From IMG/VR virus record IMGVR_UViG_3300014656_000030, positions 1 through 59,773 of that record: DNA of 59,773 nt; one strand, 5' to 3'. Made by a program: the position numbers and the translations under genes. Under the pieces are notes generated by a model. It saw only the letters and a program-made list of their open reading frames with translations, did no database searches and was not told the DNA's origin. Of this stretch, positions 1 through 41,144 are shown piece after piece (the stretch's first letter is position 1; the number at the start of each line of letters is the position of its first letter). This DNA is from a virus. Its lineage: Duplodnaviria > Caudoviricetes.

Positions 1-1
1 C

Positions 2-901
2 AGGTTTAGCTGGCGCAAGGGTGTGAAAGCTCACTCGAAAAGAGCCAGGAAGGGAGACACCCTCGGAGGCGTATATGGCTATATTAGAGACGATACCGCA
101 GCCGAGATGATAACATTCTCTGGAGAATTATACGATAGAAGGAAGGACGACATTGAACACTGTAAGGGTAAATGGGCCATAGCAAAGACAGAATACGCTG
201 GAGGTCTGAGAACCAGAAAGACTACAGAATCGATAAAGGCTACCATCAGAAATGTATTCTGCTCTGATATATGGTTAGAAGAGGACCTGATATCGGCATC
301 GATAGGTGGGATGGGAGTCGACCTGATAGATAAATCTAGGAAGTCCATACGATTTCTCGATATAGATGCATGCAAAGAGTGTTCACTGCGTGAAGAAGCC
401 GAGGCGCCAGTACCTCCTTCTGTCGGAGAGTGGAATGTAGCGATAATAGGTGAAGCTCCAGGTAGAGACGAAGATGTAGAAGGGATACCGTTTATCGGAA
501 GGTCTGGTGAGCTCGTATGGAACTATCTTCATAAAGCTAATTACAATAGGGAATTATTCTATGTAACAAACGTAACTAAGTGTTATCCAATGAGGTCCAA
601 GACTCCATCGATAAATCATATGAAATCGTGCAGGAGGTGGATTGATTCTGAGATAGAAGCTGTTAATCCTGTGGTGATACTTGCGTTCGGTAACGCTTCG
701 CTATGGTGGGTCACCGGTAAGACATCAGGAATTATGTCTCTAAACGGCACAACAGAATGGAACGCAAAACTTAACGCATGGATATGCTGGTGCGTCCATC
801 CTGCCAGCGCGCTCAGGTCTCCAGAAAATATGCCAACGCTTATAGAAGGTCTTGAAAACTTTATCAGAACTCTAGATAATATAGGAGGCAAATTCAGATG
901 A
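2..901 (+). CDS. 5'-truncated protein: DnaE-type OB-fold-like segment followed by family-4 (Fe-S) uracil-DNA glycosylase domain
   Basis: Frame open to window edge; UDG motifs CKEC, GEAPG, PFIG, NVTKC, HPAS; upstream YGYIRDDTAAEMITFSGELY resembles the Pol III alpha C-terminal OB fold. Confidence 0.75.
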   Translation, partial: RFSWRKGVKAHSKRARKGDTLGGVYGYIRDDTAAEMITFSGELYDRRKDDIEHCKGKWAIAKTEYAGGLRTRKTTESIKATIRNVFCSDIWLEEDLISASIGGMGVDLIDKSRKSIRFLDIDACKECSLREEAEAPVPPSVGEWNVAIIGEAPGRDEDVEGIPFIGRSGELVWNYLHKANYNRELFYVTNVTKCYPMRSKTPSINHMKSCRRWIDSEIEAVNPVVILAFGNASLWWVTGKTSGIMSLNGTTEWNAKLNAWICWCVHPASALRSPENMPTLIEGLENFIRTLDNIGGKFR

Positions 902-1224
902 TGCTAAACCTGGATGAAAGTATGACAGACTGGGTGGAAAAGTATGGAGATGGGTTCGTAAGGTCGCTCAGAGCGGCAGCAGAAGTAAGAGCCGAAAGAA
1001 GGAAATCGTATGGAGATACGTATCGTAACGACTACCTGATGTTTCTATACTATCAGATGAATAATAAGATTAAGAGATTCAAAAGTCAGATAGCATTTGA
1101 TGGAAATAGTGAATATGTTAAGGATGTATCGGTGGCGGTCGATTCTCTGCTCGATTTAATATGCTATGCCGCATTTGCATTTGAAAACACCATGGCAAAG
1201 GAGCTAAATGATGATGTCAGATAA
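898..1224 (+). CDS. Nucleotide-modification-associated domain 1 (DUF1599-like, all-alpha)
   Basis: KSYGDTY...NKIKRFK...DSLLDLICYA pattern. Confidence 0.7.
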   Translation: MMLNLDESMTDWVEKYGDGFVRSLRAAAEVRAERRKSYGDTYRNDYLMFLYYQMNNKIKRFKSQIAFDGNSEYVKDVSVAVDSLLDLICYAAFAFENTMAKELNDDVR

Positions 1225-2512
1225 GGTGGTACTCGGAGGAGGGCTGTCTGGTCTCATATACGCGTATTATCATAAGGACCATATTATAATATCACCGGAT
1301 ATCGGAGGAAAGATGGACGAAAGCGGTAAGGATTTTTTCTCTAATATAATATTTGCTCACTATAATAATGCCACCATAAGACTTCTAAATGATATTGGAA
1401 TACCATATTCTAGGGCGACAAGGCCAATAGTGTATATTGTGAAGGAAAAGGCTGACAATATGGCTGGATGGAAGAGAGTTGTATTAGATAAAAGCATGGT
1501 TAGCATCGATGTAAAACTAAAGATAATTAGAAAGAAGATGCGCGACCCTTCTTTTGAACCACTTGACCTGAATCTGTCAACCGACGATTACTACATCGAT
1601 ACGCTAGATTTTTCTATAAGCGACCTAGTTAGAAGACTTTCAGATAAGATTATGAATGAGGAAAGATGGCATGATCAGACTGCCATCAGGATAACTAAAG
1701 AAAAGGTGGTTACATCTGATACGTCATTTCCATATTCAAGACTGATATCCACTATACCGGCGGATATATTCTGGAAAATACACGAACTCGAACTCGACTG
1801 CGAACTAAAGTCTGGATGGACTACCTTCGCGCTATCGGATAGGCCAACATCGGAACTAAGAAATATTCAGTTTAATATTGCATATGACGCTACTGATAGT
1901 GCATGTACTAGGATATCTCATAATAACAAAAAAGATAACGACGTTTTCCTGTATGAGTTTGCAGGTAAGTTAGATGAACATCAAGTAGAGAGCAATCTTC
2001 CTCTTGATGCTAAGTTAATACAGTGGTATTCTGAACCTAGAGGGGTTATCTTTACGAACAGCTGGAACGTCCCTCCTCCTAATACTATATTCGTCGGAAG
2101 GTTCGCCCAGTGGAAGCATTCAATCAAGCTAGGAGACGTCATAGAATCAGCCCTATTCGACTGTGATGTGAGGACAATATTCAACAGGCAGCTAAACTTT
2201 ACCAAGAATTTCTTTGACCTAGATAAATTAAGGATGGATACTGAATACAGACAAGAATCGACCAGGAGTATTATGCTACTCCTCTACCCAGAGCTCGGAG
2301 AGATACTCAACGCGATAAACTATAAGGCTCATAGAAAGAGGAGAGATGTTAATGAAGAGCATGTTAAGGAAGAAATAGTCGATTCCTTTAAGTATCTTCT
2401 CAACCTGATGATTATATGGGGAATCGACTCGCAGGAGCTCTTTGAACTGTTTAGCGCTAAGTCAAAGATAGTTGAAGACAGATACAGAGAGAAGGTGAAA
2501 GATGAGACCTGA
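1208..2512 (+). CDS. FAD-dependent oxidoreductase fused to C-terminal all-alpha dNTP pyrophosphatase (dimeric dUTPase/dCTPase-like)
   Basis: N-terminal GGGLSG, LISTIP, VGRFAQW; C-terminal ELGE...KEEIVD metal-binding helices. Confidence 0.75.
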   Translation: MMMSDKVVLGGGLSGLIYAYYHKDHIIISPDIGGKMDESGKDFFSNIIFAHYNNATIRLLNDIGIPYSRATRPIVYIVKEKADNMAGWKRVVLDKSMVSIDVKLKIIRKKMRDPSFEPLDLNLSTDDYYIDTLDFSISDLVRRLSDKIMNEERWHDQTAIRITKEKVVTSDTSFPYSRLISTIPADIFWKIHELELDCELKSGWTTFALSDRPTSELRNIQFNIAYDATDSACTRISHNNKKDNDVFLYEFAGKLDEHQVESNLPLDAKLIQWYSEPRGVIFTNSWNVPPPNTIFVGRFAQWKHSIKLGDVIESALFDCDVRTIFNRQLNFTKNFFDLDKLRMDTEYRQESTRSIMLLLYPELGEILNAINYKAHRKRRDVNEEHVKEEIVDSFKYLLNLMIIWGIDSQELFELFSAKSKIVEDRYREKVKDET

Positions 2513-2966
2513 TTGGGAAACTTACTTTATGAAGATAGCCTATATCGTTTCTGAACGCTCTACATGCATAAGAAGGAAAGTTGGAGCCATCATCGTTAGA
2601 GACAATAGGATACTTTCCACCGGATATTCAGGAGCTCCTAGCGGTCTTCCGCACTGCGATGAAATTGGAAGCTGTCTAAGGGACGAGATGAATATCCCAA
2701 GTGGAGAAAGGTCTGAACTATGTCGCGCCGCTCACGCAGAACTCAACGCTATTTCTCAGGCGGCTCAATATGGCGTTGGTATAATGCGCTCAACAATGTA
2801 CTGTACCGATAGCCCATGTTCATTCTGTGCAAAGGCTATGATAAATTCAAAGATTATAACAGTCATATATGACAGAGAATATCCTGATACTATGGCTAGC
2901 AGAATGTTTGCAGAGGCAGGTATTGTATCAAAGAAAACGAAAATAGAGAAAGGATTTGAGACATGA
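2502..2966 (+). CDS. dCMP deaminase
   Basis: RSTC..RKVGA, HAE and PCxxC zinc motifs. Confidence 0.93.
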   Translation: MRPDWETYFMKIAYIVSERSTCIRRKVGAIIVRDNRILSTGYSGAPSGLPHCDEIGSCLRDEMNIPSGERSELCRAAHAELNAISQAAQYGVGIMRSTMYCTDSPCSFCAKAMINSKIITVIYDREYPDTMASRMFAEAGIVSKKTKIEKGFET

Positions 2967-3877
2967 AGGATAGCGAACGTAATCTAAAGGAAAGATTTGG
3001 AATACGATACGGAAAGAAACCGGAAACAAAGTTCATCGATAATATGAACGCGGTTAAAGTTAGGCTTATCGATTGGCCAGACCCAGATAGGTTGATAACC
3101 GTTCTCGTAAATATGGCGAAGGCCAGCTGGTATGAGGACTTTTCCGTCGATGCTGATAAGGGAGATATCGAAAAAACAGTAGAGAAGCTGCTGTCAGGAG
3201 AGGTGTTGGCTCAGGGATTAGAACACGCGACATTCTGTTTCCTAGTGTCAGGTCTAAGCCTTCATGGAACTCATATGCTCGTAAGGAACAGGGTGGGGAT
3301 ACGATATATGCAGAGGTCCACCGCAGTATGTGACTTCAGGGATGAACCGGTGCTTGTCCCAAGAGCATTCACCAGACATCCATCTATGCTTGAAAGATAT
3401 AAGGAATGGGCCCGTCAAGGGAAACAGCTCTATGCCGACTTGCTAGACACTGGAGACATAGCTGCCTCTGACGCCAGGATGTGCTTACCTAAGAGTATGC
3501 CTCAATGGTGTTATGTCAGCTGCTGCCTCACTACGCTCCTGTCGATATACGGAAAGCGCTCTGATACTCAGGAAGAGCCTCCTGAGATGAATATCATGGT
3601 GGAACAGATGAAAGACCTAGTGGTTGAAAAGTTCCCATATATGAGAAAGTATTTCGTCAGATTCTGTGATGTCGGAAAGTGCCTGCATAATAGACCAGGA
3701 TACGAGGCTAACTCGGTATTTGCAAGAGACGATAGGCATAAGGTGAATAGAATCAGAAAAGTAACGATAGTCGGAGACGGAGACGCAAATGAATTAGAAT
3801 TCTACAAGGATAACTGGACGCTTCATAACAAGACGAAACAGGAAATGATGCTTGACGCAGACCCATATGATGACTAA
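2963..3877 (+). CDS. thyX: Divergent flavin-dependent thymidylate synthase (ThyX-like)
   Basis: LEHATFCF, RNR-x8-S (variant of RHR-x7-S), DARMCLP. Confidence 0.7.
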   Translation: MKDSERNLKERFGIRYGKKPETKFIDNMNAVKVRLIDWPDPDRLITVLVNMAKASWYEDFSVDADKGDIEKTVEKLLSGEVLAQGLEHATFCFLVSGLSLHGTHMLVRNRVGIRYMQRSTAVCDFRDEPVLVPRAFTRHPSMLERYKEWARQGKQLYADLLDTGDIAASDARMCLPKSMPQWCYVSCCLTTLLSIYGKRSDTQEEPPEMNIMVEQMKDLVVEKFPYMRKYFVRFCDVGKCLHNRPGYEANSVFARDDRHKVNRIRKVTIVGDGDANELEFYKDNWTLHNKTKQEMMLDADPYDD

Positions 3878-3895
3878 ATTAAGGAGCAATAAATT

Positions 3896-4762
3896 ATGAT
3901 GATACAGGATATGTATCGAAATAATAAGTGGAAGATGCTGATGTGCTGTATCATGCTTAATAGGTCGAAGGGCGGCGTAGTGAAGAAAGTGGCTCCAAAC
4001 TTCTTCGATGAATTCGAATCTGCTCTGTCTGTTATTAATGGCGATAAAGATTTGATGACCAAAATTATACAACCGCTCGGACTTCAGAACGAAAGAGTTA
4101 ATAGGATGAAAGATTTATCCGAATGGTTTATAAATAATAAGAAGGTTGTTACTTCCGACGACCTGCTTGGAGCTCCAGGGGTTGGAGACTTCACTATCGA
4201 GTCATGGTCGGTGTTCATCGACAGAATAATACCAGAAGTAATAACCGATAAGGAAATAAGGAGATATGTTCAGAACGCTGTAAAATCCAGTGACATTATA
4301 AGAAGTTTTAGCAAAAGAATATATGAAGCTGGAGAATTTAATACGATAGAAGGCATGGACTATATTGAAGCAATTAACAAAGGCATAGAGATATATGATA
4401 ATGTATTCATCGAAAAGCTCGATGAAGATAACGCTAAGTATGTATCCGATAAGATGGCATTCATAGGAGACCAGATAGATTCTGCTATAAAAAAGATTAT
4501 GTATGACAGAAACAGCAGAAGGGCCATCATAGTATTCAACCAGGATGGAAACGAGCAGAACTGTTCCGTGTGTTCTCATATTCAGATAAGGAACAACAAG
4601 ATAATAGAGCTAGTGTATCAGCGTTCTCAGGACGTTGATATGCTGCATAAGGACATAGAAACATACGCAAGAATAGCTTGTCGTTTCTGTGAATATGGAT
4701 GGGCAGACGAATATTTTATATCAATAAGATACGGAAATATACACGCGAGATACGATGCATAA
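3896..4762 (+). CDS. MBD4-like HhH-GPD DNA glycosylase fused to minimal thymidylate-synthase-family domain
   Basis: N-half IQD..WKML..IMLNRS..PLGL..PGVG..TDKEIRRY; C-half DQI..SRRA..NC..YQRSQD..D..GNIH. Confidence 0.8.
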   Translation: MMIQDMYRNNKWKMLMCCIMLNRSKGGVVKKVAPNFFDEFESALSVINGDKDLMTKIIQPLGLQNERVNRMKDLSEWFINNKKVVTSDDLLGAPGVGDFTIESWSVFIDRIIPEVITDKEIRRYVQNAVKSSDIIRSFSKRIYEAGEFNTIEGMDYIEAINKGIEIYDNVFIEKLDEDNAKYVSDKMAFIGDQIDSAIKKIMYDRNSRRAIIVFNQDGNEQNCSVCSHIQIRNNKIIELVYQRSQDVDMLHKDIETYARIACRFCEYGWADEYFISIRYGNIHARYDA

Positions 4763-4802
4763 TAATGTTATGATTATTAAAAAAAACAAAGGAGGTAATA
4801 AA

Positions 4803-5018
4803 ATGGACTGTGGAGGACATAGAGATTCAGATAACTGCTGGTTTTTGATGATGGGAAAAGCGCAAAGGATGCTGCGCCGCCGTATGCGACATCACCGACC
4901 CAGCGATATGAAATATGCCCAGTTGGAACCAAGTCCTAATGACATAAAAAACTTGGCCGTGCACCAGACAGGCTGGAACGTGAAGTGCATCGGAAAAGGT
5001 TGTATTCATCATGGATGA
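4803..5018 (+). CDS. Hypothetical Cys-containing protein
   Basis: GGAGG RBS before ATG 4803. Confidence 0.5.
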   Translation: MDCGGHRDSDNCWFLMMGKAQRMLRRRMRHHRPSDMKYAQLEPSPNDIKNLAVHQTGWNVKCIGKGCIHHG

Positions 5019-5265
5019 ATACGTCCCGATAGCGCTACGTCAGGAATCGTGGAGCATGGCAAAGCATCCTGAAGCGTGGGGCATAGGACGTCTTGATGGG
5101 CATGGCGGAATGGGAATGACGCACGGACCATTCGATAGTGAAGAAGAGGCACTAGAGACGGTCGGAGAGCGGGGAGAAAGAATCGTTCATTTCTTTCCCG
5201 ATGGAACAGATAAAGTGGTATGGCGATGGAAGCTTGACAGATGGGTTAAAAGGTATCGCCTATAG
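5011..5265 (+). CDS. Hypothetical protein
   Basis: ORF coupled to upstream gene. Confidence 0.55.
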   Translation: MDEYVPIALRQESWSMAKHPEAWGIGRLDGHGGMGMTHGPFDSEEEALETVGERGERIVHFFPDGTDKVVWRWKLDRWVKRYRL

Positions 5266-5435
5266 GGTTCTGAAGGTCTCCAATGGTTTATAATATAGTA
5301 GAATAAGATATGGCCAAATGAGGAAAATAAAGGGAGATGAATGAACTACTACAACGACAACGACAAGAACGCGGCGATAGAAAAGTACGTGGTATTTGTC
5401 CCTCGGAAGGCTAAATGCAAAGAGTAAGGAGCGAA

Positions 5436-6326
5436 ATGACTGACTATCTCGGTCCATACGAATTAGGCAAGGTTCATTGCATGGACTGTATGGAAGCTAT
5501 GCCGCAGTTGCCGGATGGGTGCGTGGATTTGGTGCTGACTGACCCGCCGTATGGGATTGGTGAGGCGGCAAGACGGAACGAAACAAGAGGCTGTCTTGCG
5601 AAAGCGAAGAACTATGGTACAGCCAAGTGGGATGATAAACCTCCATCGTCTGAATGCTTCAAGCAAATAATGAGAGTATCGACAGAGCAAATTATTTTTG
5701 GTGGCAACTTTTTCACTTTTGCACTTCCGGCAAGCAGTAGTTGGATTGTTTGGGATAAACAAAACGGTGATACAGACTTTGCTGATTGTGAGCTTGCGTG
5801 GACATCTCATAAAAGAGCGGTGCGAAAGATTGTGTATCGTTGGCAGGGAATGTTACAAGGCAATATGGGGCATCTCAAAGAGCAACGGGTACACAGAACG
5901 CAAAAGCCGTTGCCAGTCATGCTATGGATATTAGAGAGGTATAGTTCCACCTCCAACATCATCCTCGACCCGTTCATGGGTTCAGGCACAACCGGAGTCG
6001 CCGCCGTCCAGCTTGGGCGTCGGTTCTTGGGATTTGAGATTGACCCGGAGTACTGTGAACTGGCAAACAAACGCATCGCCGAGGAAAAGCGTAAAGTAAA
6101 GCGTGGCATACCGGACTATTATAATGTATACCGCAACCACAAAGTCAGCGAAGGCACTGATAATGCTAAACTGCTCACCAGGGTTAAATCCCTGAACAAT
6201 CTGAGGCTCATTAAAGACAAACTCTACAAGAACTGTGTGGTATACGCACATTGGAATAAAGCAGATGATAGGGTCGAGGAGGATGAAATGGTCGGCAGGG
6301 TAGGCAAACTTCTGGCTAAAAGGTAA
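5436..6326 (+). CDS. DNA N6-adenine/N4-cytosine methyltransferase, beta class
   Basis: DPPY, HRTQKP, DPFMGSGTT; AAGGAG RBS before ATG 5436. Confidence 0.92.
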   Translation: MTDYLGPYELGKVHCMDCMEAMPQLPDGCVDLVLTDPPYGIGEAARRNETRGCLAKAKNYGTAKWDDKPPSSECFKQIMRVSTEQIIFGGNFFTFALPASSSWIVWDKQNGDTDFADCELAWTSHKRAVRKIVYRWQGMLQGNMGHLKEQRVHRTQKPLPVMLWILERYSSTSNIILDPFMGSGTTGVAAVQLGRRFLGFEIDPEYCELANKRIAEEKRKVKRGIPDYYNVYRNHKVSEGTDNAKLLTRVKSLNNLRLIKDKLYKNCVVYAHWNKADDRVEEDEMVGRVGKLLAKR

Positions 6327-6503
6327 AACGTGTGAATCACATAGACATTCTTAAAAATGCATATATTGTCTGTATTATGGACGAAGTCCTATCCGCAGTC
6401 GATACCGATATACGACGTTATAAAAGTCAGAATATGAAGCAGGCGGAAATTGCGGCGAACAGCATAAGGAAGATACTAGAAGATAAGAAGAAAGAGGCTG
6501 AAA

Positions 6504-7040
6504 ATGGATAGCAGAAAGGATACGAATATGGATTATGAAAAGGACATGCAGATTGACGAAACTGCGCTCGACGTGGAATGGCTTGAACAACCATCGTTAA
6601 TGATGCGATACTGTCGCCTAGCCACCGAAGCCAGAGCCTCAGTTGATATGGCAAAAGAAAGGCTCGATGCCATAAAGGCGCAAATAGATACTGATATTAG
6701 GAAAGACCCAGCACAATACGGTCTTGAAAAGCTTACCGAGACACTTATAGCCAATACCGTCATTCTCCAGCCTGATTGTATACATCAGCAGGAGGTTCTT
6801 AACGAGCTACGGATGGAAGATGCTATGGCACAGTGTGTTGTAAGAGCACTGGAACATAGAAAAAAGGCACTCGAAAACCTCGTCGTTTTACATGGACAGC
6901 AGTATTTCGCTGGTCCGTCAGTGCCGCGAGACCTCACCAAGAAATACAGCGAGCGGAAGGAATGGGAACGGAAACAGAAAGATAAGATGGCTACCAAAAA
7001 TATTTCGCCAGGAACAAAGCGAGAAAGGAAAAGGGTTTGA
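6504..7040 (+). CDS. UvsY-like recombination mediator (coiled coil)
   Basis: IDETALDVEWLEQP..Y..ALEHRKKALENLV; located next to SSB and RecA. Confidence 0.55.
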   Translation: MDSRKDTNMDYEKDMQIDETALDVEWLEQPSLMMRYCRLATEARASVDMAKERLDAIKAQIDTDIRKDPAQYGLEKLTETLIANTVILQPDCIHQQEVLNELRMEDAMAQCVVRALEHRKKALENLVVLHGQQYFAGPSVPRDLTKKYSERKEWERKQKDKMATKNISPGTKRERKRV

Positions 7041-7297
7041 AAGGTGAATTAGCATATTTTTTGGTGCTATCGATAATAGCCTTCGCCATAGTGACAGTAG
7101 TGTCTGCTACTTGGATGTATTTTATGAGCAAGGCTCAAGCTAAGGGATGGATTGAGGAATTAAACAGTTTCATATCAAAGAGAAAGGAAGATAACGATGC
7201 CAAAGAGAACAGAGAAGTGGTCAGGAAAGGGAGTGGGAGCAAAGGCGAAGCAGGAAAAGGAAAGAGGGAGCCAATTCGGATATCTGATAAAACCTGA
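7037..7297 (+). CDS. Small membrane protein
   Basis: N-terminal hydrophobic helix; overlaps SSB start by ~100 nt. Confidence 0.4.
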   Translation: MKGELAYFLVLSIIAFAIVTVVSATWMYFMSKAQAKGWIEELNSFISKRKEDNDAKENREVVRKGSGSKGEAGKGKREPIRISDKT

Positions 7298-8339
7298 AGA
7301 TGTTATGGTTTATCTACCGTCTCCAGGAGGGAGGAGCGACATCGATTTTCTGGTATACGACGTAACCGATGATAATCATCCCGATAAGGATGAATCACTA
7401 GGGATTGCTCTTAAGGGCGAACAGTGGTATCGACGACCATTCAAGATACATAGAGACATCGGAGTGAATAAGGTCGCTGTAGTATGTCCGACATCAATCG
7501 GAAGGAGATGTCCGGTATGCGAATACCAGGCAGAGCTCAGAAAGAAGGGTGGAGATAAAGAGCTGATAAAGGCGTTAAGAGCAAAGGACAGGGTTCTCTA
7601 TTGCGTCATACCCATTGGAGAGCATAAGTTCGAAGCGGTCCCTCACCTGTTCGAAATATCTCATTATCTGTTTCAGAAGTTACTCAACGAAGAAATAACC
7701 GAGGATGAAAGGTATGGGATGTTTCCGAGCCCATCCGATGGACTAACGGTCAAGATTAGGTGGGACAGTAAGAAGATTGGAGAAGGCGACGCCTTTGCCG
7801 AAGCCAACAGGATTGATTTCAACTCAAGAGACTATGAATATGACGATGATATGTTATCGAAAGTTCCTGACCTCGATTCGATAATACACAAATCTGTTAT
7901 ATCAAGCGAAAAGCTTTCCAACATGTTCTTCGAGCTAGAAACCGAATCAGACGCCGGCGCGGATGATGGAACAGAATTTCCTCCCAGAGAAACAAGCGAA
8001 GAACGGCCGAAGCGAGAGCGCAGAGATGCAACAGAACATACACCTGCAAGAAAACCGAAAGGAGCTGTACCAAAGGAGAAAGAAAAAGAGTCTGAACAAG
8101 AATCAGATGAAGACGTGTGTATCGCCTGTGAAGGGACTGGAATCAACAGTAAGGGTAATAAGTGCAAGATATGTAACGGAACCGGAGAAAGAAAGAACGA
8201 AGATAAAAAAGATACCGATAATGCCTGTCCATATGATCACGAATTCGGAAAAGATTCAGATGTTTATAAAGATTGCGACGATTGCGACAGAGAAATATGG
8301 GGTCGCTGTCTTGATGAAAAAGAAAAGAATATCGCCTAA
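7197..8339 (+). CDS. Single-stranded DNA-binding protein (gp32-like) with C-terminal zinc-finger extension
   Basis: H..CP...CPVCE core, acidic linker, CxxCxGxG x2. Confidence 0.7.
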   Translation: MPKRTEKWSGKGVGAKAKQEKERGSQFGYLIKPEDVMVYLPSPGGRSDIDFLVYDVTDDNHPDKDESLGIALKGEQWYRRPFKIHRDIGVNKVAVVCPTSIGRRCPVCEYQAELRKKGGDKELIKALRAKDRVLYCVIPIGEHKFEAVPHLFEISHYLFQKLLNEEITEDERYGMFPSPSDGLTVKIRWDSKKIGEGDAFAEANRIDFNSRDYEYDDDMLSKVPDLDSIIHKSVISSEKLSNMFFELETESDAGADDGTEFPPRETSEERPKRERRDATEHTPARKPKGAVPKEKEKESEQESDEDVCIACEGTGINSKGNKCKICNGTGERKNEDKKDTDNACPYDHEFGKDSDVYKDCDDCDREIWGRCLDEKEKNIA

Positions 8340-8761
8340 TGAAGATAAGGTCGACCTACAAGATAAAAAAGAAGAAATCCCCTCCCATAATAGATGGGAG
8401 GGGAGTCACCATGTCATTCATAGCTCCAATCAACACTTATGAATTATTGGCTCTGCATTCCATGTACTACGGCGTATCGATGTCGAAATATATACGTAAA
8501 GTTATAGAAGATAGAATAAAGATAGAAAAGAACCCAAACAGTGTTATAAATTCCATAGCCGAACAGATGGCAGATAAGTGGAAAAAGATATTCGCGATGA
8601 ACAGCGGTTCTAATGGATGGAATAGTGAAGATAATCTTAACAGAAGGTTCGAAGAGTTTGAAAAGGATATGAAAGTTGCACTGAAGACAAGGAGGATGAA
8701 TAAAAAGTGGATAGAGATTATTATAAAGGAATTCAAGAAAAGAGCCACCAGTTATGACTAG
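8339..8761 (+). CDS. Hypothetical, possible ribbon-helix-helix DNA-binding protein
   Basis: TMSFI..YELL..GVSMSKYIRKVIE. Confidence 0.45.
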   Translation: MKIRSTYKIKKKKSPPIIDGRGVTMSFIAPINTYELLALHSMYYGVSMSKYIRKVIEDRIKIEKNPNSVINSIAEQMADKWKKIFAMNSGSNGWNSEDNLNRRFEEFEKDMKVALKTRRMNKKWIEIIIKEFKKRATSYD

Positions 8762-9800
8762 AACAAGAGTAAGCGCGACAAAGAAGCTCAGCGAACAGAT
8801 GAAAGATAGATACGCAAATATCCGTCCGGAACTTGACAGTGACCTTGGCCCAATGATAAGCACCGGCTCAACGTTGTTAGACCTTGCCATATCTGGTACC
8901 CGCATTAGGGGTGGCGGAATTTCTGGTGGCATCCTTATGGAAATGTCAGGACAGCCAAGCACCGGTAAAACGGTTATGCTCTGCGAAATAGCTGGTGCGG
9001 TAAAGCGCCAGGGTGGTGAGCACCTATTCTACGACCCAGAAGGACGGCTGAACAAACAGTTCGCTAAGATGTTCGGTCTCGATATTCAAGATGAAGATTA
9101 CAGTATGCCGGACACGATACCACAACTGTTTGAACCGATAAGAAAGTGGGAGCCAGAACCGCAGGATTCTGTACACGGAATATTCGCCGACTCGCTTGCG
9201 GCGCTTTCCACAAAGATGGAGATGGAAGGTGAAGATAAATATGGAATGCGAAGGGCGAAGGAGTTCAGCGAACAGATGCGTAAGACTTGTCGCGTGATTA
9301 AAAACAAAGGTTTCCTGATGGTCTGTTCAAATCAGGTACGAGAAAACACCGCCGCTGGACCTTATGGCGAAAAAGATATAACTCCTGGTGGCAGGGCCAT
9401 ACCATTCTATTCCAGTTTGCGATTAAGATTTCGCGGTTCAGGAACCAAGCTGAAGGAAGAACAAAAGATACATGGTAAGACGCATAAGCGTGTTATCGGA
9501 GTTGAAGTTACCGCATACATCTCTAAGAATTCGCTGGATAAGCCGTTCAGAGAGGCACCGATAACCATCCTGTATGACTATGGTATCGACGATATACGGC
9601 AGAACCTCCAGTTCATTAAAAGTATAAAAGGTGATAAGATATATTCGGTTGGAGGGACATCGCTTGGCATATCGATGGATGGGGCCATAAAAGCCATTGA
9701 AGATGATAATCTTGAGGATACCGTTAGAAATGAAACGATAGATTTGTGGGAAGAGGTGGAACGCAAGTTTGTTAAGGATAGAAAGCCGAAGGTGAGATAG
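8754..9800 (+). CDS. recA: RecA/UvsX-like recombinase
   Basis: ISTGS..LD, GQPSTGKT, DPE, DSLAAL, NQVR, TPGGRAIPFYSSLR. Confidence 0.93.
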   Translation: MTRTRVSATKKLSEQMKDRYANIRPELDSDLGPMISTGSTLLDLAISGTRIRGGGISGGILMEMSGQPSTGKTVMLCEIAGAVKRQGGEHLFYDPEGRLNKQFAKMFGLDIQDEDYSMPDTIPQLFEPIRKWEPEPQDSVHGIFADSLAALSTKMEMEGEDKYGMRRAKEFSEQMRKTCRVIKNKGFLMVCSNQVRENTAAGPYGEKDITPGGRAIPFYSSLRLRFRGSGTKLKEEQKIHGKTHKRVIGVEVTAYISKNSLDKPFREAPITILYDYGIDDIRQNLQFIKSIKGDKIYSVGGTSLGISMDGAIKAIEDDNLEDTVRNETIDLWEEVERKFVKDRKPKVR

Positions 9801-9810
9801 GAGTCTTAGA

Positions 9811-10356
9811 ATGGAAAGAACACGGACAAAAACTGAAAGAAAGAAACCGCGCATAAAGGTATCCTCTGCCAAGGCCAAGGGGCGTGAGTTTCAGCAGTGG
9901 GTCGGACGACAGATATCAATAATCACTGGTTATAAATTCGGAAAGGATTGCCCGATAGAATCCCGCCCGATGGGACAGAGCGGCGTAGATGTACGAATGG
10001 AAGAACGTGTGCTGAATATGTTTCCTTTTTCTGTGGAATGTAAGCGTCAGGAAAACTGGTCTGTGCCAGCGTGGATTGAACAGGCCGCCAGGAATCAGCT
10101 ACCGAACACCGACTGGCTCCTGTTCATGCGCAGGAGTAGGACTCCAGCGGTGGTAACGATGGATGCGCTGGCATTCTTCAGACTCATTGGCAGCGGTATC
10201 AGGCTTGAGGATAACAACGGCGGCGACGTTATAGAAATAATGCCAAATGGTAACGGCGGGTATTCAATGACGATATGTCAATCATGCGTTCGAATATTTG
10301 AATCGGAAGGCACTATAAGCTCTATTATATCTGACTTGAAGGAGAATATACTATGA
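9811..10356 (+). CDS. Holliday junction resolvase (PD-(D/E)xK)
   Basis: AKAKGREFQ, MGQSGVDV, FSVECK. Confidence 0.8.
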   Translation: MERTRTKTERKKPRIKVSSAKAKGREFQQWVGRQISIITGYKFGKDCPIESRPMGQSGVDVRMEERVLNMFPFSVECKRQENWSVPAWIEQAARNQLPNTDWLLFMRRSRTPAVVTMDALAFFRLIGSGIRLEDNNGGDVIEIMPNGNGGYSMTICQSCVRIFESEGTISSIISDLKENIL

Positions 10357-10565
10357 GCACAGACGCCTACAAGATGTATATCAGTTATGACAAAGGCAAG
10401 ACATATGTTTGTGAATATATCGTCGATGACGTGGAAGAGATTAAAGACTTAATTCGTGCATTTGAGCGTAGGAAGATGGTTGTGGATTTCTACGTCAAGC
10501 ATAAAGGTAAGACGATTACAGTCAGTCCGTATTCTAAGAAAAAGGCGGATAAAGCAACACCCTGA
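10353..10565 (+). CDS. Hypothetical protein
   Basis: AGGAG RBS, coupled ORF. Confidence 0.55.
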   Translation: MSTDAYKMYISYDKGKTYVCEYIVDDVEEIKDLIRAFERRKMVVDFYVKHKGKTITVSPYSKKKADKATP

Positions 10566-10571
10566 AAAGCT

Positions 10572-11639
10572 ATGTTAGAATCTATACAAATAAAGAACTT
10601 CCAGAGCCATAATGACACCGAGATAGAATTGTCAGAAGGTGTTAACGTATTCATCGGCCTATCGAGCGCAGGTAAGAGCGCCATAATGAGAGCCATACGG
10701 TGGCTGAGGAATAATAGGCCGGGAGGTGAATCATTTCGCTCTAACTGGGGCGGCACCACGACTGCACGCATTATATTGAACGACAAGGATGAAACAACAA
10801 TAAGCCGTATAAGAAGCGATAAATCCAACGAATATCTATTAGATGATATTATCGTATCACCTATACGATTCAAAGCCATCGGAACGGATGTTCCAGAAGA
10901 GATTCAGAAGGCGCTCCGTATAGACGACATATGTGTACAGGGCCAGCATGACCGCCACTTTCTGCTCAGCGAAAGCCCCGGAGAAGTCGCCCGTCACTTT
11001 AACGAAGTTGCTCATATTGAAGTGATAGACGTCGCTCTGAAAAACATACAGAGCAATATACGGACGATAGATGCTGATATCTGCGACCATAAAATAAACA
11101 TAGATGCGCTCACCGAAGAGCTTGATGACTACATCCAACTACCAAGTATCGAAGAAGAGGTTGTTAAGGCGGAAAGTATTGAGTGCGAAGTACAGACTGT
11201 AACCGAAGGTATAAAGAAGATAACAGCATTGATGTTTACCTTCAACGAGGCTGAAGCGGGTATATTATACAGAAATAACTTTATTCTGGCAGCTTCTTAC
11301 GTCGACAAAGCCCTCGGCATATTCGAACGTATAGGCTTAATAGAAGCAGATGCGCTGACGCTTAGGAGACTGACGGAACAATATGAAGCGACAGAAGGAG
11401 CGATACGCGACAGGAACAACTTTATCCTAGCATCTCCAACAGTAGATAAGGCGCTCGACGTGTATAAGCACATAAGCGCGATACATTCGAGCATCCTGAA
11501 GCTCAAGAGAACGATTGAAGCGCACGAAGAAGTTGAAGGTGAGATACATATAGGAAAAAGAAACGTAGAAGACCTTCAGGCAGAACTGAATGCAAACTTC
11601 CCTGACATATGCCCGCTCTGTGAACAGGAGATAAAATAA
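10572..11639 (+). CDS. Rad50/SbcC-like ATPase, N-terminal half ending at zinc hook
   Basis: IKNFQSH, GLSSAGKS Walker A, Q-loop, coiled coil, terminal CPLC. Confidence 0.88.
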   Translation: MLESIQIKNFQSHNDTEIELSEGVNVFIGLSSAGKSAIMRAIRWLRNNRPGGESFRSNWGGTTTARIILNDKDETTISRIRSDKSNEYLLDDIIVSPIRFKAIGTDVPEEIQKALRIDDICVQGQHDRHFLLSESPGEVARHFNEVAHIEVIDVALKNIQSNIRTIDADICDHKINIDALTEELDDYIQLPSIEEEVVKAESIECEVQTVTEGIKKITALMFTFNEAEAGILYRNNFILAASYVDKALGIFERIGLIEADALTLRRLTEQYEATEGAIRDRNNFILASPTVDKALDVYKHISAIHSSILKLKRTIEAHEEVEGEIHIGKRNVEDLQAELNANFPDICPLCEQEIK

Positions 11640-11860
11640 TGGAATTCTTTGAAATGAAAGATGAAGAAATATTGGAAGAGGACCAATTGGTGGTCATTGT
11701 TAATACTAATATGATACGAGCCTTTGATGCGCTAAAAGATTCGACTCCGGATGGTATATTTATCAAAGAGATTGAGGATGAAGATGAAGATGGTAATCCA
11801 ATATATGGCGGTATGGTTATACTATTGAACGAAATAGAATTCGCAAGGTCACAGAAATGA
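11639..11860 (+). CDS. Small acidic hypothetical protein
   Basis: Coupled ORF with RBS. Confidence 0.55.
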   Translation: MEFFEMKDEEILEEDQLVVIVNTNMIRAFDALKDSTPDGIFIKEIEDEDEDGNPIYGGMVILLNEIEFARSQK

Positions 11861-12747
11861 AACGGACTAGAACTAAGAAAATAGTTAATCCTCCATCGGC
11901 AATACTGACTTCCGACTGGCACCTGCGAGAAGATACACCAGAATGCCGAACGGACGACTTCTGGCAGAAACAGTGGGACAAGGTTCTTTTGACGCAGCGT
12001 CTATGTCTAGAATACCGTTGTCCTGTTATACATGCGGGAGACCTGTATAATCACTGGAAACCGTCTCCATTACTGCTGACTTACACTCTTCGATTTATAC
12101 CAGAAAACTTCTGGACCGTATACGGACAGCATGACCTTCCACAACACAATATGAATCTATCAGAAAAGTGCGGGATAGATACCTTGTTGGCATCCGAAAG
12201 CATATGCCTATGCAATAACGGTCACTTTAGTACCGAAACGAGTGGCGAAACCAATATAATACATTACGGAAAAAGTAAGATAGCCGTATGGCATAAACTC
12301 GTTTGGGAAAAGAATCCTCCCCACTGGGACACAGACGGGCTGACTGCGGAAAGGGTGCTGGCGGAACACCCTGAGTTTGATTTAATAGTGACTGGCGATA
12401 ACCATCAATCGTTTGTTGTTGAATACGAAGGGAGGTTGTTAGTAAATCCAGGTTCTCTGACACGCCAGTCTGCTGACCAAATCAACCATCGGCCCGCCGT
12501 GTTCCTGTGGTATGCGGAAGATAACTCCGTAGAGCCATACTATCTGCCGGTGAATCTGGATGATGTCACCCGCGAACATCTTGACGAGGTACATAAGAGG
12601 GATGACAGAATGGACGCATTTATATCCAGTATTAGCCAGGAATGGATTAGCGGATACAATTTCGAGCGCAACATTGAACGATTCTTCAGGAAGAACAAGG
12701 ATATCGATGTGAAGGTTAAAGAGATAATCCTAAAAGCGATGGAATAA
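11857..12747 (+). CDS. Mre11/SbcD-like metallophosphoesterase nuclease
   Basis: SDWH, AGD, GQHD, GDNH, NPGS. Confidence 0.92.
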   Translation: MKRTRTKKIVNPPSAILTSDWHLREDTPECRTDDFWQKQWDKVLLTQRLCLEYRCPVIHAGDLYNHWKPSPLLLTYTLRFIPENFWTVYGQHDLPQHNMNLSEKCGIDTLLASESICLCNNGHFSTETSGETNIIHYGKSKIAVWHKLVWEKNPPHWDTDGLTAERVLAEHPEFDLIVTGDNHQSFVVEYEGRLLVNPGSLTRQSADQINHRPAVFLWYAEDNSVEPYYLPVNLDDVTREHLDEVHKRDDRMDAFISSISQEWISGYNFERNIERFFRKNKDIDVKVKEIILKAME

Positions 12748-14747: not shown

Positions 14748-15252
14748 ATACACGAAGGAATATGTCGAGATGCAGCATAAACAGCTTGCCGCCAAGGACG
14801 CGGAGATAGAGCGGCTGAAAGAGGAAGTGAAGCAGTTGGAAGGGTTAGATGCCGATAACGCAGCTTGGGTTATCGCCCTCGCAGCAGAGTTACCAGAGGA
14901 AGTTTATAAAGATGTAAGAAATCGAGTAGGTGTCTTGTTTAACCAACTCCACGCCGCCGAGCAACGCATCAAGGAGCTTGAGCGCAAACTTACCCTCGTC
15001 AAAGAGCACGCCCTAATCAACTTCGACAATGACTTGCTTAAACTGGTTGACGCCAAGAATATGCCCGATAACTGGCACTGTCCAAGATGCAACGCCGCCA
15101 AACAGACGAGAATACGCTTGCGGGGATGGGAGCAGACACCGCCCAATAGGAATAAAGGCCACTTGGCGGCGTTCTATCTCGGACACGAAACAGCCAGAAG
15201 TGAAGTCCGCGCCATCCTCGACGGCGGAAAGGAGGGGGAAGATGAAGGTTAA
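14728..15252 (+). CDS. Hypothetical coiled-coil protein with CPRC
   Basis: GGAGG RBS; KDAEIERL motif. Confidence 0.6.
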   Translation: MRVQDGEYTKEYVEMQHKQLAAKDAEIERLKEEVKQLEGLDADNAAWVIALAAELPEEVYKDVRNRVGVLFNQLHAAEQRIKELERKLTLVKEHALINFDNDLLKLVDAKNMPDNWHCPRCNAAKQTRIRLRGWEQTPPNRNKGHLAAFYLGHETARSEVRAILDGGKEGEDEG

Positions 15253-15511
15253 GTGGAACCGCAAATGGGATGTCTACACAAAGTTTGACCGAAAACAGGG
15301 CTTGTGCCCACACTGCAACAGGGCATGTAAACAAATAAACATATGGAAAGAGATGGCTATTATTCAAGGTATATATTATCCCCCCTATATGTGGGAAATA
15401 ATAAATATCCCATCAAACCCAGGCGATGCTCCCTTGGCAATAGGGTGTAACAAAACATTGAGGGCCGCCAAACGCGCCTCGCTGAAGGCGGCCAAAGGAA
15501 AGGAGGAATAG
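15242..15511 (+). CDS. Hypothetical basic protein
   Basis: GGAGG RBS before ATG 15242. Confidence 0.55.
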   Translation: MKVKWNRKWDVYTKFDRKQGLCPHCNRACKQINIWKEMAIIQGIYYPPYMWEIINIPSNPGDAPLAIGCNKTLRAAKRASLKAAKGKEE

Positions 15512-15514
15512 GGG

Positions 15515-15742
15515 ATGGGGAGCCTTTATGAGCGCTTTCATTCAGGGGAAGAAGTAGAATGGCATCCAGAGGCGTTCTCGCAAGGAATGGAAGCATGTAT
15601 GCGAGGCTTTTCCTATAGTGATAGAGGCTGTAATCCATATACAGAAAACCGTGAAGGTTGGATGTATAAATCGTTTGTTGCTGGATGGACAGATGCGGAT
15701 ATGTGTCGTAATGAATGGGATAAGAAAGGAGACCCACAATGA
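15515..15742 (+). CDS. Rmf-like small protein
   Basis: AFSQG..ACMRG..CNPY..FVAGW pattern. Confidence 0.5.
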   Translation: MGSLYERFHSGEEVEWHPEAFSQGMEACMRGFSYSDRGCNPYTENREGWMYKSFVAGWTDADMCRNEWDKKGDPQ

Positions 15743-33703: not shown

Positions 33704-34090
33704 TCAATCGTACTCGAAGCTCGTTATCGCCCTGAGCGTCGGTCTCCTTTTCCCCAAAGCCGCCATCTTACCAGTAGAATCCAACATCAGCACGGTCTGA
33801 CCATATGTCGTAGAACGAAGTTGCTGTCCAAAACTGTCCGAGAACCTAACCGACGGGGCCGGACCACCTCCGGCTTCCTTCAGCATCTTACTACGCTGAA
33901 TCGTAGCAACGATAATATGAGCAGTCAGCCAGCACTCTATCTGCTCTTTAAGAGCGTCAGTTATCGTTGTGTCGCTACCTAGAACCTCTGTGACCAACTC
34001 ATTAGCCGTCAGAATAAAAGAATCAACGGTGCCGGTAGCAACGCTTTCCGAAAGGATAGCATTCACCTCAGCAGCAGTCGTTCTAGCCAT
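33704..34090 (-). CDS. Head-tail connector
   Basis: WLTAH, STTYGQ..LDSTG. Confidence 0.75.
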   Translation of the reverse strand: MARTTAAEVNAILSESVATGTVDSFILTANELVTEVLGSDTTITDALKEQIECWLTAHIIVATIQRSKMLKEAGGGPAPSVRFSDSFGQQLRSTTYGQTVLMLDSTGKMAALGKRRPTLRAITSFEYD

Positions 34091-34796
34091 GCGCGTGCAC
34101 CCCTTTCCTTGCCTTCCATAGTTTAGGGTCGACGAACTCTATGATTGCCTTCTCGTTCCATTCCAGTCCAAGCCATTCTACGACATCATATAACTGCCGG
34201 TAATCTCCGCGAACCATCCTATCCGGCCATATTACCTTACAGTTCAACCCATTCTCTATCATCTCCACAAATCTGTTACGATGCTGACGCTCCCACCACA
34301 ACCATCCGTCAAATTCAGAGCTTACCTTCACCGCCCGCTGTATAAATGATTTCCTATATGCGGACATAAACGCAGTCTTGCAACAAGAATGGGCGATATC
34401 GCTTGGTTTTCTCCGAACTATTATCCACTTCGCATCAGGAAAAGAATGAAACCATATCGGCCACATTAAACACATCTTGGCACCCTTGTAAAACCAAGGG
34501 CCTTCCTTATACCCCTCATCCATAAACACCTTTTGAACCTTCTGTCTCCAATCAGACGGTATCGGAAGATTATGAATATCTGGTAATGGGTACTGCCCAA
34601 GTCTATCTACCCTAATAGATTCGAAATACGGCTTAACCAGCGTCTGGACCACTCGTACGTTTTCATACATACCCTTCCTGTTGTTACTATTCGCTCCGCG
34701 CATTACACCACCAAACGCATTACACCTAAATATAGAACCTGCAACAAGGCTAGTACCAGAACGAGCGGCACCGGTTATCAATATAGGTTCTTTCAT
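34083..34796 (-). CDS. Sulfotransferase-family protein
   Basis: ITGAARSGTS PAPS loop, N..G.YE, VRR.P..A.S; ATGA overlap. Confidence 0.8.
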   Translation of the reverse strand: MKEPILITGAARSGTSLVAGSIFRCNAFGGVMRGANSNNRKGMYENVRVVQTLVKPYFESIRVDRLGQYPLPDIHNLPIPSDWRQKVQKVFMDEGYKEGPWFYKGAKMCLMWPIWFHSFPDAKWIIVRRKPSDIAHSCCKTAFMSAYRKSFIQRAVKVSSEFDGWLWWERQHRNRFVEMIENGLNCKVIWPDRMVRGDYRQLYDVVEWLGLEWNEKAIIEFVDPKLWKARKGVHAHG

Positions 34797-39377: not shown

Positions 39378-40042
39378 TAAAAACGCTCCAATGTAATAGA
39401 GGTAACAGCCAATGAGTCATATTTTCTATTGTACAAGTCAAATACTGCATCAGCCACCGCTTCAGGACTAATCAGGTTATCCCAATCTTCCCGATGCCGG
39501 ACCATATCAGTTTTCATAGCTCCAGGATAGATACTAAGCACCCGAATGCCGGCAGGACGGCCAACTTTATCCATTGCTTCAGAAAACCCACGCAGACCAA
39601 ATTTCGTGGCACTATACACAGGTTCATTATACGATGAATTCAAACCAGCCACAGAGTTAATGTTAATTATGGCTCCATTTTTACTCTTTTCAAGATAGGG
39701 CCAAGCTATCTGAGTTATCATGATAGGAATCATGAAGTTCACCGAACTAATGACTATGATTTTTTCGCTAGGCATATCCTGCAAAGATTCATCGCTATAT
39801 ACCCCTGCATTATTTACCACCAAATCAACTCCGAACTCGTCAAGCGTCTCATGTATGTTAATAAGCGTAGCGGCCATCGTAAGGTCGCCCCCTATAACGC
39901 GCATAAATGGAACCACGCCATCAACATCGTCAGGAGGGTTTCCGCTCCTACAAGTGAGTATCAACCCAAAACCATCCCTAGCAAATCGTCTGGTCAGGGT
40001 CAAACCAAGCCCTCTGTTGGCACCAGTTATCAACACATTCAT
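39377..40042 (-). CDS. SDR oxidoreductase
   Basis: TGANRGLG, NNAG, YSATK. Confidence 0.92.
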   Translation of the reverse strand: MNVLITGANRGLGLTLTRRFARDGFGLILTCRSGNPPDDVDGVVPFMRVIGGDLTMAATLINIHETLDEFGVDLVVNNAGVYSDESLQDMPSEKIIVISSVNFMIPIMITQIAWPYLEKSKNGAIININSVAGLNSSYNEPVYSATKFGLRGFSEAMDKVGRPAGIRVLSIYPGAMKTDMVRHREDWDNLISPEAVADAVFDLYNRKYDSLAVTSITLERF

Positions 40043-40045
40043 TTC

Positions 40046-41143: not shown

Positions 41144-41144
41144 G

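Follow-up and report, generated by a model that had tools for sequence, protein, structure and literature searches.

A linear virus record from IMG/VR (59,773 bases, here the window, at its full length) encodes a 288-amino-acid protein in which a DNA glycosylase domain of the MBD4 family is joined to a truncated thymidylate synthase (TS) fold, here termed the mini-TS. Together with the module of conserved genes that it closes, this fusion points to a route, not yet described, by which modified cytosine is made and policed in the DNA of viruses. We favour, at roughly even strength, a role in nucleotide-level modification of cytosine at C5 combined with repair of the deamination products of the modified base. 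The open reading frame (ORF), taken from the ORF list at 3896..4762 (+ strand), starts with ATG ATG, ends with TAA and has a Shine-Dalgarno sequence, AAGGAG, ~10 nt 5' of its start. The AlphaFold2 (AF2) model of the whole protein has a mean predicted local distance difference test (pLDDT) value of 96.6 and a predicted template modelling score (pTM) of 0.92, and the junction between the domains is modelled as a helix, with no flexible linker. The product of this ORF is a real two-domain protein and, in the model, its two domains are packed rigidly against each other. Complex predictions with two copies of the fusion gave 0.52, 0.10 and 0.01 in separate runs, values that have no bearing on a TS-like dimer. 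The structure rows for the fusion in the protein atlas were all TS-like clusters and held no usable feature match.

The N-terminal domain (residues 1-128; 3896..4279, + strand) was identified as an MBD4-family HhH-GPD DNA glycosylase by profile, VIA and phmmer comparisons. On its own, the window protein matches the Pfam HhH-GPD family at E = 2.3e-4 (21.9 bits, under the cut-off of 26.2), and phmmer searches of the PDB with it find Mig.MthI (1kea, E = 1.1e-6) and MBD4 (E = 4.5e-5). Relatives give clearer values: PF00730 is matched by 10 of 19 aligned relatives (best E = 4.1e-11), which are all ten that have the N-terminal domain, and the fusion orthologue on contig L005 scores 41.1 bits to Pfam HhH-GPD. 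A profile from an alignment of 31 N-domain sequences (A12) matches MBD4 in the PDB at E = 1.9e-38 (134 bits) over the whole glycosylase domain, compared with 4e-16 for Mig.MthI, 5.6e-13 for endonuclease III and 3.9e-10 for MutY. In VIA, model residues 1-135 align with MBD4 structures 4ofa and 4evv at Z 18.5 and 18.0, respectively, over 131 residues and with a root-mean-square deviation of 2.0-2.1 Å; sequence identity to MBD4 in the structural alignment is 19%.

The motifs that an earlier note on this DNA had read as MBD4-like are all present, namely IQ (residues 3-4), W.ML (12-15), LNR (21-23), PLGL (60-63), GVG (95-97) and TDKE (117-120), and its claim that this half follows the MBD4 catalytic domain is borne out by the profile and the fold. 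Arg23 (3962..3964, + strand; codon checked) aligns with the LNR motif of MBD4, at a position that we take to be the DNA-intercalating Arg, and Leu63 of PLGL and the hairpin of the helix-hairpin-helix (Gly95-Val96-Gly97; 4178..4186, + strand; GIG in MBD4) align as well, Gly97 being invariant in A12. The LNR Arg and PLGL Leu are presumably the residues that enter the DNA helix in MBD4 structures. Position 23 is Arg in six of the ten fusions, Gln in three and Lys in one. Asp118 (4247..4249, + strand; codon GAT) occupies the catalytic Asp position of HhH-GPD glycosylases, as the note had proposed from TDKE; it is invariant in all 31 sequences of A12, pairs with the Asp of 'EDHKLNKY' in MBD4 and is Asp in nine of the ten fusions (Asn in P0008).

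Like MBD4 (4ofa, 4evv and 6vjw), the domain has the minimal, compact HhH-GPD fold without an Fe-S module (131 of 142 residues aligned), with LNR, PLGL, G(I/V)G, an aromatic residue following the hairpin and, as the catalytic residue, the Asp of D-x-x-L/I-x-x-Y. Unlike MBD4, the fusion is viral, at 19% identity, and has a C-terminal TS fold in place of a methyl-CpG-binding domain; Pfam finds no methyl-CpG-binding domain in the window protein, which begins directly with the glycosylase domain. Mig.MthI, endonuclease III and MutY belong to the same HhH-GPD superfamily, and 1kea is the best single-sequence match in the PDB (Z 15.4), but these proteins carry an Fe-S module that the fusion does not have, and 115 of 217 residues align. 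Because MBD4 gives the best profile and fold match, the motifs and the Asp align and there is no Fe-S module, the N-terminal domain can be placed on the MBD4 branch of the HhH-GPD glycosylases; it is predicted to excise T, U or 5-hydroxymethyluracil (5hmU) opposite G. A library-wide search returned 575 relatives at E = 0.001 or better, and ~132 of the best 150 match the N-terminal domain only, most of them being small proteins of ~120-190 amino acids. Pfam scans of ten longer proteins bearing the N-terminal domain gave no informative partner domain.

The C-terminal domain (residues 128-288; 4277..4759, + strand) was recognized as a minimal TS fold by VIA, profile and hhalign comparisons. The window protein alone matches Pfam Thymidylat_synt at E = 1.8e-3 (17.9 bits, under the cut-off of 24.3), across only profile positions 109-173 of 266, and PHROG 160 'thymidylate synthase' at E = 2.9e-6. 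PF00303 is matched at E = 0.01 or better by 15 of the 19 relatives (best E = 1.3e-9), and the L005 orthologue scores 24.8 bits. A profile of ten C-domain sequences finds TS (E = 1.1e-9) as well as T4 dCMP hydroxymethylase (E = 2.8e-6), and aligns with residues 110-209 of Escherichia coli TS at E = 4.7e-8. In hhalign, the domain matches T4 gp42 with a probability of 96.1% (E = 3.3e-9) and RB69 gp48 with 94.9%. The VIA matches of residues 127-288 are 9iqc (Z 16.1, 161 residues aligned), 3v8h (14.8), 6auj (14.7), MilA (5jnh; 14.4) and T4 dCMP hydroxymethylase (13.4), with 153-162 residues aligned overall.

Within this fold, the TS active site is largely retained; residues were paired by HMM (hidden Markov model) and hhalign alignment, and conservation was counted over the 19 aligned relatives. 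Arg208-Arg209 (4517..4522, + strand) align with the SRR motif of TS and presumably correspond to E. coli R126/R127, which reach over from the partner subunit to bind phosphate; Arg208 is kept in 17 of 19 sequences. Cys223 (4562..4564, + strand) aligns with the TS nucleophile (E. coli C146, T4 C148) and is Cys in 17 of 19, which agrees with the nucleophile assigned in the earlier note. That note had also quoted, for this half, YQRSQDVDMLHKD, which is found at residues 241-253. It includes Gln242-Arg243-Ser244-Gln245-Asp246 (4619..4633, + strand), aligned with QRS.D of TS (E. coli Q165-D169), where Asp246 is kept in 17 of 19. The phosphate and ribose ligands are aligned in the form of R208, R209, R243, S244, and H283 with the Tyr that follows it; we take H283 and this Tyr to match H207 and Y209 of E. 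coli TS, which are ribose ligands. No equivalent of E. coli TS R21 was identifiable in the C-domain alignments. The set of Cys, Arg, Ser, Asp, Asp and His is complete in 16 of 19 relatives, and further near-invariant residues (G146, E158, Y182, K186 and N222) are peculiar to the mini-TS family.

Asp253 (4652..4654, + strand) bears on the nucleotide that the domain would bind. The HMM alignment pairs it with the Asn of TS (E. coli N177), and hhalign to T4 gp42, a comparison that the earlier note had proposed, pairs it with D179, and other hhalign alignments pair it with the matching Asp in both RB69 gp48 and the Xp12 TS homologue; the position is Asp in 18 of 19 sequences. The proposed Asp at the ThyA N177 position therefore stands by both the HMM profile and hhalign. 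With Asp here, specificity is for dCMP instead of dUMP (PMC13326640; PMC8670742). The residue after Cys223 is Ser or Thr in the family, not His, and is Thr in T4 gp42 also; the corresponding TS position 147 is one of the two most modification-associated positions (PMC8670742). T4 gp42 (1b49, 1b5d and 6l18) thus resembles the mini-TS in the nucleophile (C148 and C223), the Asp (D179 and D253), an acidic residue that in the mini-TS is seen in the window protein and one other relative at most (D145 and E220), the Thr or Ser after the Cys and an N-terminal strand motif, and differs in having MRSND where the mini-TS has QRSQD and in that the mini-TS is fused to a glycosylase.

Compared with full-length TS enzymes, the mini-TS is small (~160 amino acids), and it is also found by itself: stand-alone mini-TS proteins of 155-166 amino acids make up nine of the best 150 matches in the library-wide search. 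A protein of the cultured Synechococcus phage S-CBWM1 (BFVD A0A3G1L3Q7, 151 amino acids) gave a weak fold match (E = 5.7e-3, TM score 0.64 by target length) and could be another stand-alone mini-TS. Against the mini-TS profile, full-length TS-like relatives from IMG/VR align as two segments on either side of an insert of 45-75 amino acids that is missing from the mini-TS. At six IMG/VR loci (L010-L014 and L018), full-length TS-like proteins with a T4-type 'MRSND...D' pattern score 31-60 bits against the mini-TS profile (T4 gp42 scores 30 bits), and these are perhaps the full-length proteins most closely related to the mini-TS clade.

The fusion is not confined to the window. The same two-domain architecture is found in eight further cluster representatives (266-297 amino acids, 24-37% identity), and P0002 is also a fusion. 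A search of IMG/VR with the single window protein returned no relative, and the IMG/VR relatives were recovered with tighter sub-alignments (A4, A9 and A10); fusions are encoded on IMG/VR contigs L005/L006/L008 and L007 and on the JGI metagenome contigs L019, L020 and L021. Contig sequence is thereby available for four phage lineages: the window, L005/L019/L020 (L019 and L020 belong to the L005 lineage), L007 and L021. In three of these, the window, the L005/L019/L020 lineage and L007, the fusion ends a pyrimidine-metabolism module of four genes in identical order: a small protein (~100 amino acids), a protein of 413-434 amino acids, a ThyX-like protein (294-304 amino acids) and the fusion. 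L021 has the last three module genes in the same order, on a contig that starts just upstream of them, and the fusion is the last module gene in every locus examined. The module lies at 898-4762 in the window, 7572-10855 in L005, 816-4997 in L007, 5572-8852 in L019/L020 and 623-4094 in L021. HMMs of three of the module genes were built with L005 and L007 sequences among others, so that only L019-L021 are independent tests of the order.

A tblastn search with the whole fusion against 50,697 phage records gave N-domain matches only, in 8 records, none covering at least 80% of the query; megablast of window positions 1-12000 found no match in the phage collection; and the same two-domain architecture was absent among the BFVD matches listed. 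A profile scan (A4) of genome contigs gave 135 pattern matches and no relative, which is no proof of absence from cellular genomes. The literature that was searched, with subscription journals and supplements outside reach, describes no HhH-GPD-TS fusion, no phage MBD4-like glycosylase and no truncated TS family, in line with the view of the earlier note that the pairing of these activities is undescribed.

The other module genes include two flavoproteins. Module gene 1 (898..1224, + strand), assigned by synteny, encodes a small all-alpha protein of 108 amino acids that is 39-40% identical to the ORFs found in the same position in L005 and L007 and has no Pfam or PHROG match. Module gene 2 (1208..2512, + strand; 434 amino acids) combines a flavoprotein resembling UDP-galactopyranose mutase (UGM) and protoporphyrinogen oxidase (~residues 1-320) with an all-alpha NTP pyrophosphatase. 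Its AF2 model (pLDDT 89.3) matches UGM (4dsg) at Z 23.4 and protoporphyrinogen oxidase at 21.6 in VIA, and its C-terminal part is dUTPase_2/MazG-like (Pfam dUTPase_2, E = 1.4e-4). It has 31 homologues of ~400-430 amino acids, two of them in records named Candidatus Microgenomates and Saccharimonadales. Module gene 3 (2963..3877, + strand; 304 amino acids) encodes a divergent ThyX-like flavoprotein (Pfam Thy1, E = 4.7e-22) in which RNR replaces the RHR motif and a C-terminal extension of ~70 amino acids contains Cys and His. It is the most conserved module member, with 59-61% identity to the L005 and L007 orthologues. L005 also encodes a second, canonical ThyX (14948-15664), to which the module protein is 23% identical and of which it lacks ~35 amino acids, and a DnaE-type polymerase directly 3' of the fusion. 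Since L005 has this canonical enzyme, the conserved ThyX-like gene product may not be an ordinary dTMP synthase, and it offers an alternative catalyst of one-carbon transfer.

Between module genes 2 and 3, the window phage alone has a dCMP deaminase (2502..2966, + strand; Pfam dCMP_cyt_deam_1, E = 3.1e-22; PHROG 174, E = 2.6e-49), which is missing from the L005 and L007 modules. No ThyA, dihydrofolate reductase (DHFR) or C5 DNA methyltransferase was found in the 59.8-kb record, which is 76% complete by estimate. That neither DHFR nor a C5 DNA methyltransferase was found fits a nucleotide-level route that makes no dihydrofolate.

A link between MBD4-type glycosylases and C5-modified cytosine comes from a second phage group. 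N-domain matches in the phage collection are confined to Xp12-like Xanthomonas phages and one cyanophage, and the Xp12 homologue of the domain occurs in 13 phage records, all of the Xp12/AXL1/Donnerlittchen group. The Xp12 protein (QNN97216; L001 7914-8396) matches the HMM of the MBD4-like N-terminal domain at E = 5e-40, and copies in this group are annotated 'hypothetical', 'ENDO3c' or 'endonuclease III'. In the Xp12 record, the gene lies two genes from the TS homologue, beside genes for a HAD/NTP pyrophosphatase, a dCMP deaminase and DHFR. In Xp12 DNA, C is replaced by 5-methylcytosine (5mC), the TS homologue of this phage produces 5-methyl-dCMP and deaminases of such phages are able to deaminate 5mC in single-stranded DNA (bioRxiv 10.1101/2024.12.05.627091). 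According to the AXL1 paper, the AXL1 gene likewise has the NTP pyrophosphatase/HAD, TS homologue, dCMP deaminase and DHFR genes beside it, and AXL1 DNA, in which 5mC is suspected, resists C-sensitive restriction enzymes; its gp65 figures there only as a protein with an ENDO3c domain, the function being uncertain. The MBD4 likeness of the Xp12-group protein apparently went unrecognized, both in the annotations and in the AXL1 paper.

The Xp12-group operon resembles the window locus in bringing an MBD4-like glycosylase, an NTP pyrophosphatase, a dCMP-type TS-fold protein and a dCMP deaminase together in one replication-module operon. It differs in that these are separate genes, the TS homologue is full length (289 amino acids), DHFR is present, and there is neither a ThyX-like gene nor a UGM-like flavoprotein. 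In two phage groups that are unrelated, an MBD4-type glycosylase thus accompanies TS-fold genes of the dCMP type, as a separate gene in one and fused in the other, and the Xp12 group provides independent support for the link to modified cytosine. The pairing of a T:G-type glycosylase with C5-modified cytosine that the earlier note had suggested gains from this comparison.

Some further genes of the window were noted. An N6/N4-type DNA methyltransferase with a DPPY motif (5415-6326; Pfam N6_N4_Mtase, E = 1.2e-24) lies ~650 nt 3' of the fusion, with two small matchless ORFs in between. At the other end of the module, an ORF that is open to the window start (23-901) has a domain of the uracil-DNA glycosylase (UDG) superfamily (residues 138-269; Pfam E = 1.1e-25) and a weak match to a DNA-polymerase PHROG; the ORFs at this position in L005 and L007 have no clear homology to it. 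The PolA-UDG fusions of T-modified phages were considered as a parallel and dropped; in those enzymes, the UDG is N-terminal to the polymerase (PMC13697223). A sugar-chemistry cassette at 34083-42493 (- strand), among late and structural genes, encodes a sulfotransferase, a methyltransferase with a GT9-like protein (807 amino acids), an E1/transketolase-like thiamine pyrophosphate enzyme, a PfkB kinase, a short-chain dehydrogenase/reductase, a Zn-dehydrogenase and an MptE/Maf-like protein, and may decorate the virion, the host surface or DNA.

Under the reading that we favour, the phage would act on nucleotides, replacing or modifying cytosine at C5. Module gene 2, through its pyrophosphatase, would convert dCTP to dCMP, and the mini-TS would bind dCMP, with its Cys adding at C6 and thereby activating C5. 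Because the mini-TS is without the folate-binding elements of ThyA, the one-carbon or other group would probably reach C5 via the ThyX-like flavoenzyme or by another non-ThyA route. Deamination of the modified cytosine, either spontaneous or by the phage's own deaminase, would place T, 5hmU or U opposite G, where it would be invisible to normal uracil repair, and the fused glycosylase would excise it. The fusion would in this way tie repair capacity to the modification machinery, both stoichiometrically and spatially. The substrates and product named here, and the modified base itself, are predictions from the folds, residues and synteny described above.

Several features weigh against this reading, most of them in the mini-TS. 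In the hhalign alignment, there is a gap opposite residues ~66-104 of T4 gp42, and the alignment stops at residue 219 of 246, the C-terminal tail (220-246) being missing. We take the missing internal segment to be the region of W80, W83 and Y94 in E. coli TS, which together with the C-terminal tail binds folate in ThyA. Lys186 (4451..4453, + strand) stands opposite T4 Glu60, presumably the catalytic Glu (E58 in E. coli), and is Lys in 15 of the 17 sequences that have a residue there; Asp185, beside it, is poorly conserved (Asp in 6 and Glu in 3 of 17). The mini-TS may therefore be incapable of classical TS or hydroxymethylase chemistry. In addition, Glu220, which aligns with T4 D145 at the L143 position, is Glu in only 2 of the 19 relatives and Leu in 9, an inconsistent product signature. 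Two of the ten fusions, P0009 and P0019, lack the Cys and at least one further active-site residue while retaining the glycosylase Asp, and P0007 retains the Cys and the glycosylase Asp with several other TS-site residues gone. The remaining points concern the N-terminal domain and the record: the window protein scores under the Pfam cut-offs for both of its domains; the LNR Arg is Gln or Lys in 4 of the 10 fusions; neither the record nor the scanned ORFs yielded a thymidylate-kinase-family dNMP kinase; and the phage is uncultivated, with an IMG/VR record estimated to be only 76% complete.

The loss of the W80/W83/Y94 segment and the tail, with Lys in place of Glu, makes a folate-dependent reaction by the mini-TS doubtful. 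Accordingly, the claim of the earlier note that the C-terminal half is a dCMP-type TS homologue holds for its fold, Cys and Asp253, and has to be qualified in that the fold is truncated to ~160 amino acids with the folate elements and catalytic Glu missing; its further idea that this half alone makes the C5-modified cytosine precursor with methylenetetrahydrofolate is rather doubtful. The remaining site is conserved, which argues for nucleotide binding and probably for catalysis.

A somewhat unlikely alternative is that only the glycosylase is catalytic and that the mini-TS, without any group transfer, is a TS-derived nucleotide-binding or scaffolding domain, which may sense dCMP or modified dCMP or dock repair onto the phage dNTP-synthesis or replication complex. 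Such a role would agree with the lost folate-binding segment and tail and the Lys at the catalytic Glu position, with the degenerate TS site of two to three of the ten fusions, all of which retain Asp118, and with the rigid packing of the domains (pTM 0.92); the ThyX-like neighbour, moreover, could carry out the one-carbon chemistry unaided. However, the full set of Cys, Arg, Ser, Asp, Asp and His in 16 of 19 relatives, with the near-invariant residues around it, is the pattern of an active site, and stand-alone mini-TS proteins exist without a fused glycosylase.

Catalysis by the mini-TS could also take a different form, in which it is a complete C5-modifying enzyme with a non-folate cofactor, either a flavin hydroperoxide or free formaldehyde; we regard this as decidedly unlikely. 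The flavin may come from a neighbouring flavoprotein, and the product may be 5-hydroxy- or 5-hydroxymethyl-dCMP, which the sugar cassette may decorate later. The precedent for non-folate chemistry in a TS fold is provided by the 5-hydroxy-dCMP synthases (PMC13326640), such as RB69 gp48, DLP3 gp80 and the HY126 enzyme (9iqc), which share with the mini-TS the fold and the Asp at the N177 position. The last of these, a flavin-dependent dCMP monooxygenase, is the top structural match of the C-terminal domain (Z 16.1), by a margin over TS (14.8) of only ~1.3, and two flavoprotein genes are conserved in the module. These synthases are, however, full length (234-238 amino acids), and D169N is the signature of all that were tested (PMC13326640); RB69 gp48 has RSQN where the mini-TS has RSQD, so that, with Asp246 retained, this signature is absent. 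In hhalign, RB69 gp48 (94.9%) is no closer than T4 gp42 (96.1%). Glu220 would fit hydroxymethylases, in which the L143 position is acidic (PMC13326640), but Glu occurs there in only the two relatives noted above. The sugar cassette at 34083-42493 would likewise suit later decoration of the base, but its place among late and structural genes suggests that it may target the virion or host surface.

It is still less probable that the HhH-GPD domain takes no part in repair of phage DNA and instead hydrolyses the nucleotide made by the TS-like domain, or attacks host or competitor DNA. A comparable logic is known from mildiomycin synthesis, in which the TS-like MilA is paired with MilB, an N-glycosidic-bond hydrolase that is not known to be an HhH-GPD protein. 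MilA, which acts at C5 of pyrimidines, shares with the mini-TS the fold (Z 14.4 to 5jnh) and an Asp at the N177 position, and differs, as does MilB, in acting on ribonucleotides and in being a separate, bacterial protein; the TS-like role of MilA is described in PMC5175136. A queuine salvage enzyme that hydrolyses nucleotides, an HhH-GPD relative, shares the fold of the N-terminal domain at Z 8.5, and the rigid fusion of the two domains also speaks for this reading. MBD4 (E = 1.9e-38, Z 18.5) is nevertheless far closer than any nucleotide hydrolase, the HhH hairpin is kept, the window protein keeps the DNA-contacting Arg and Leu of MBD4, and copies of the domain without a TS partner are common (~132 of the best 150 relatives). 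Finally, an assembly or frameshift artefact joining two neighbouring genes, which might be imagined given that both domains are also known as separate proteins, is refuted by the conservation of the architecture across lineages, in eight other cluster representatives and in independent IMG/VR and JGI contigs, and the junction is a confidently modelled helix.

Modification of cytosine at the nucleotide level, with repair of its deamination products by the fused glycosylase, thus remains our preferred account of the fusion. Both domains come from known superfamilies, and the module as a whole could be more than the known kinds of system. A broader proposal, which we put forward tentatively and consider on balance doubtful, is that the mini-TS (~155-165 amino acids) is an unrecognized class of TS without a folate site, which forms a new C5-cytosine pathway with the ThyX-like and UGM-like/pyrophosphatase proteins and which, in one phage branch, is fused to its own MBD4-type 'proof-reading' glycosylase. 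If true, one polypeptide would for the first time unite a base-modification enzyme with the enzyme that repairs its deamination product, and prokaryotic viruses would offer a parallel to the eukaryotic link between 5mC and MBD4.

Modified bases in phage DNA drive an arms race in which restriction and CRISPR systems are the opponents, and have been a source of sequencing tools such as enzymes for 5mC and 5-hydroxymethylcytosine and deaminases. A small, thermally undemanding T:G/5hmU:G glycosylase could serve in methylation sequencing and in error-correction chemistry. If confirmed, the compact, conserved four-gene module would be new; it is open to direct study by the heterologous liquid chromatography-mass spectrometry assay used for other TS homologues. 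Confirmation would also mean that the TS fold tolerates loss of the folate site with its dCMP-type active site kept, which would imply either new chemistry or that a ThyX-like flavoenzyme has become its partner. MBD4-family T:G glycosylases would then be regular companions of cytosine-C5 modification in phages, and their presence would account for the way in which genomes fully of the 5mC type withstand deamination to T.

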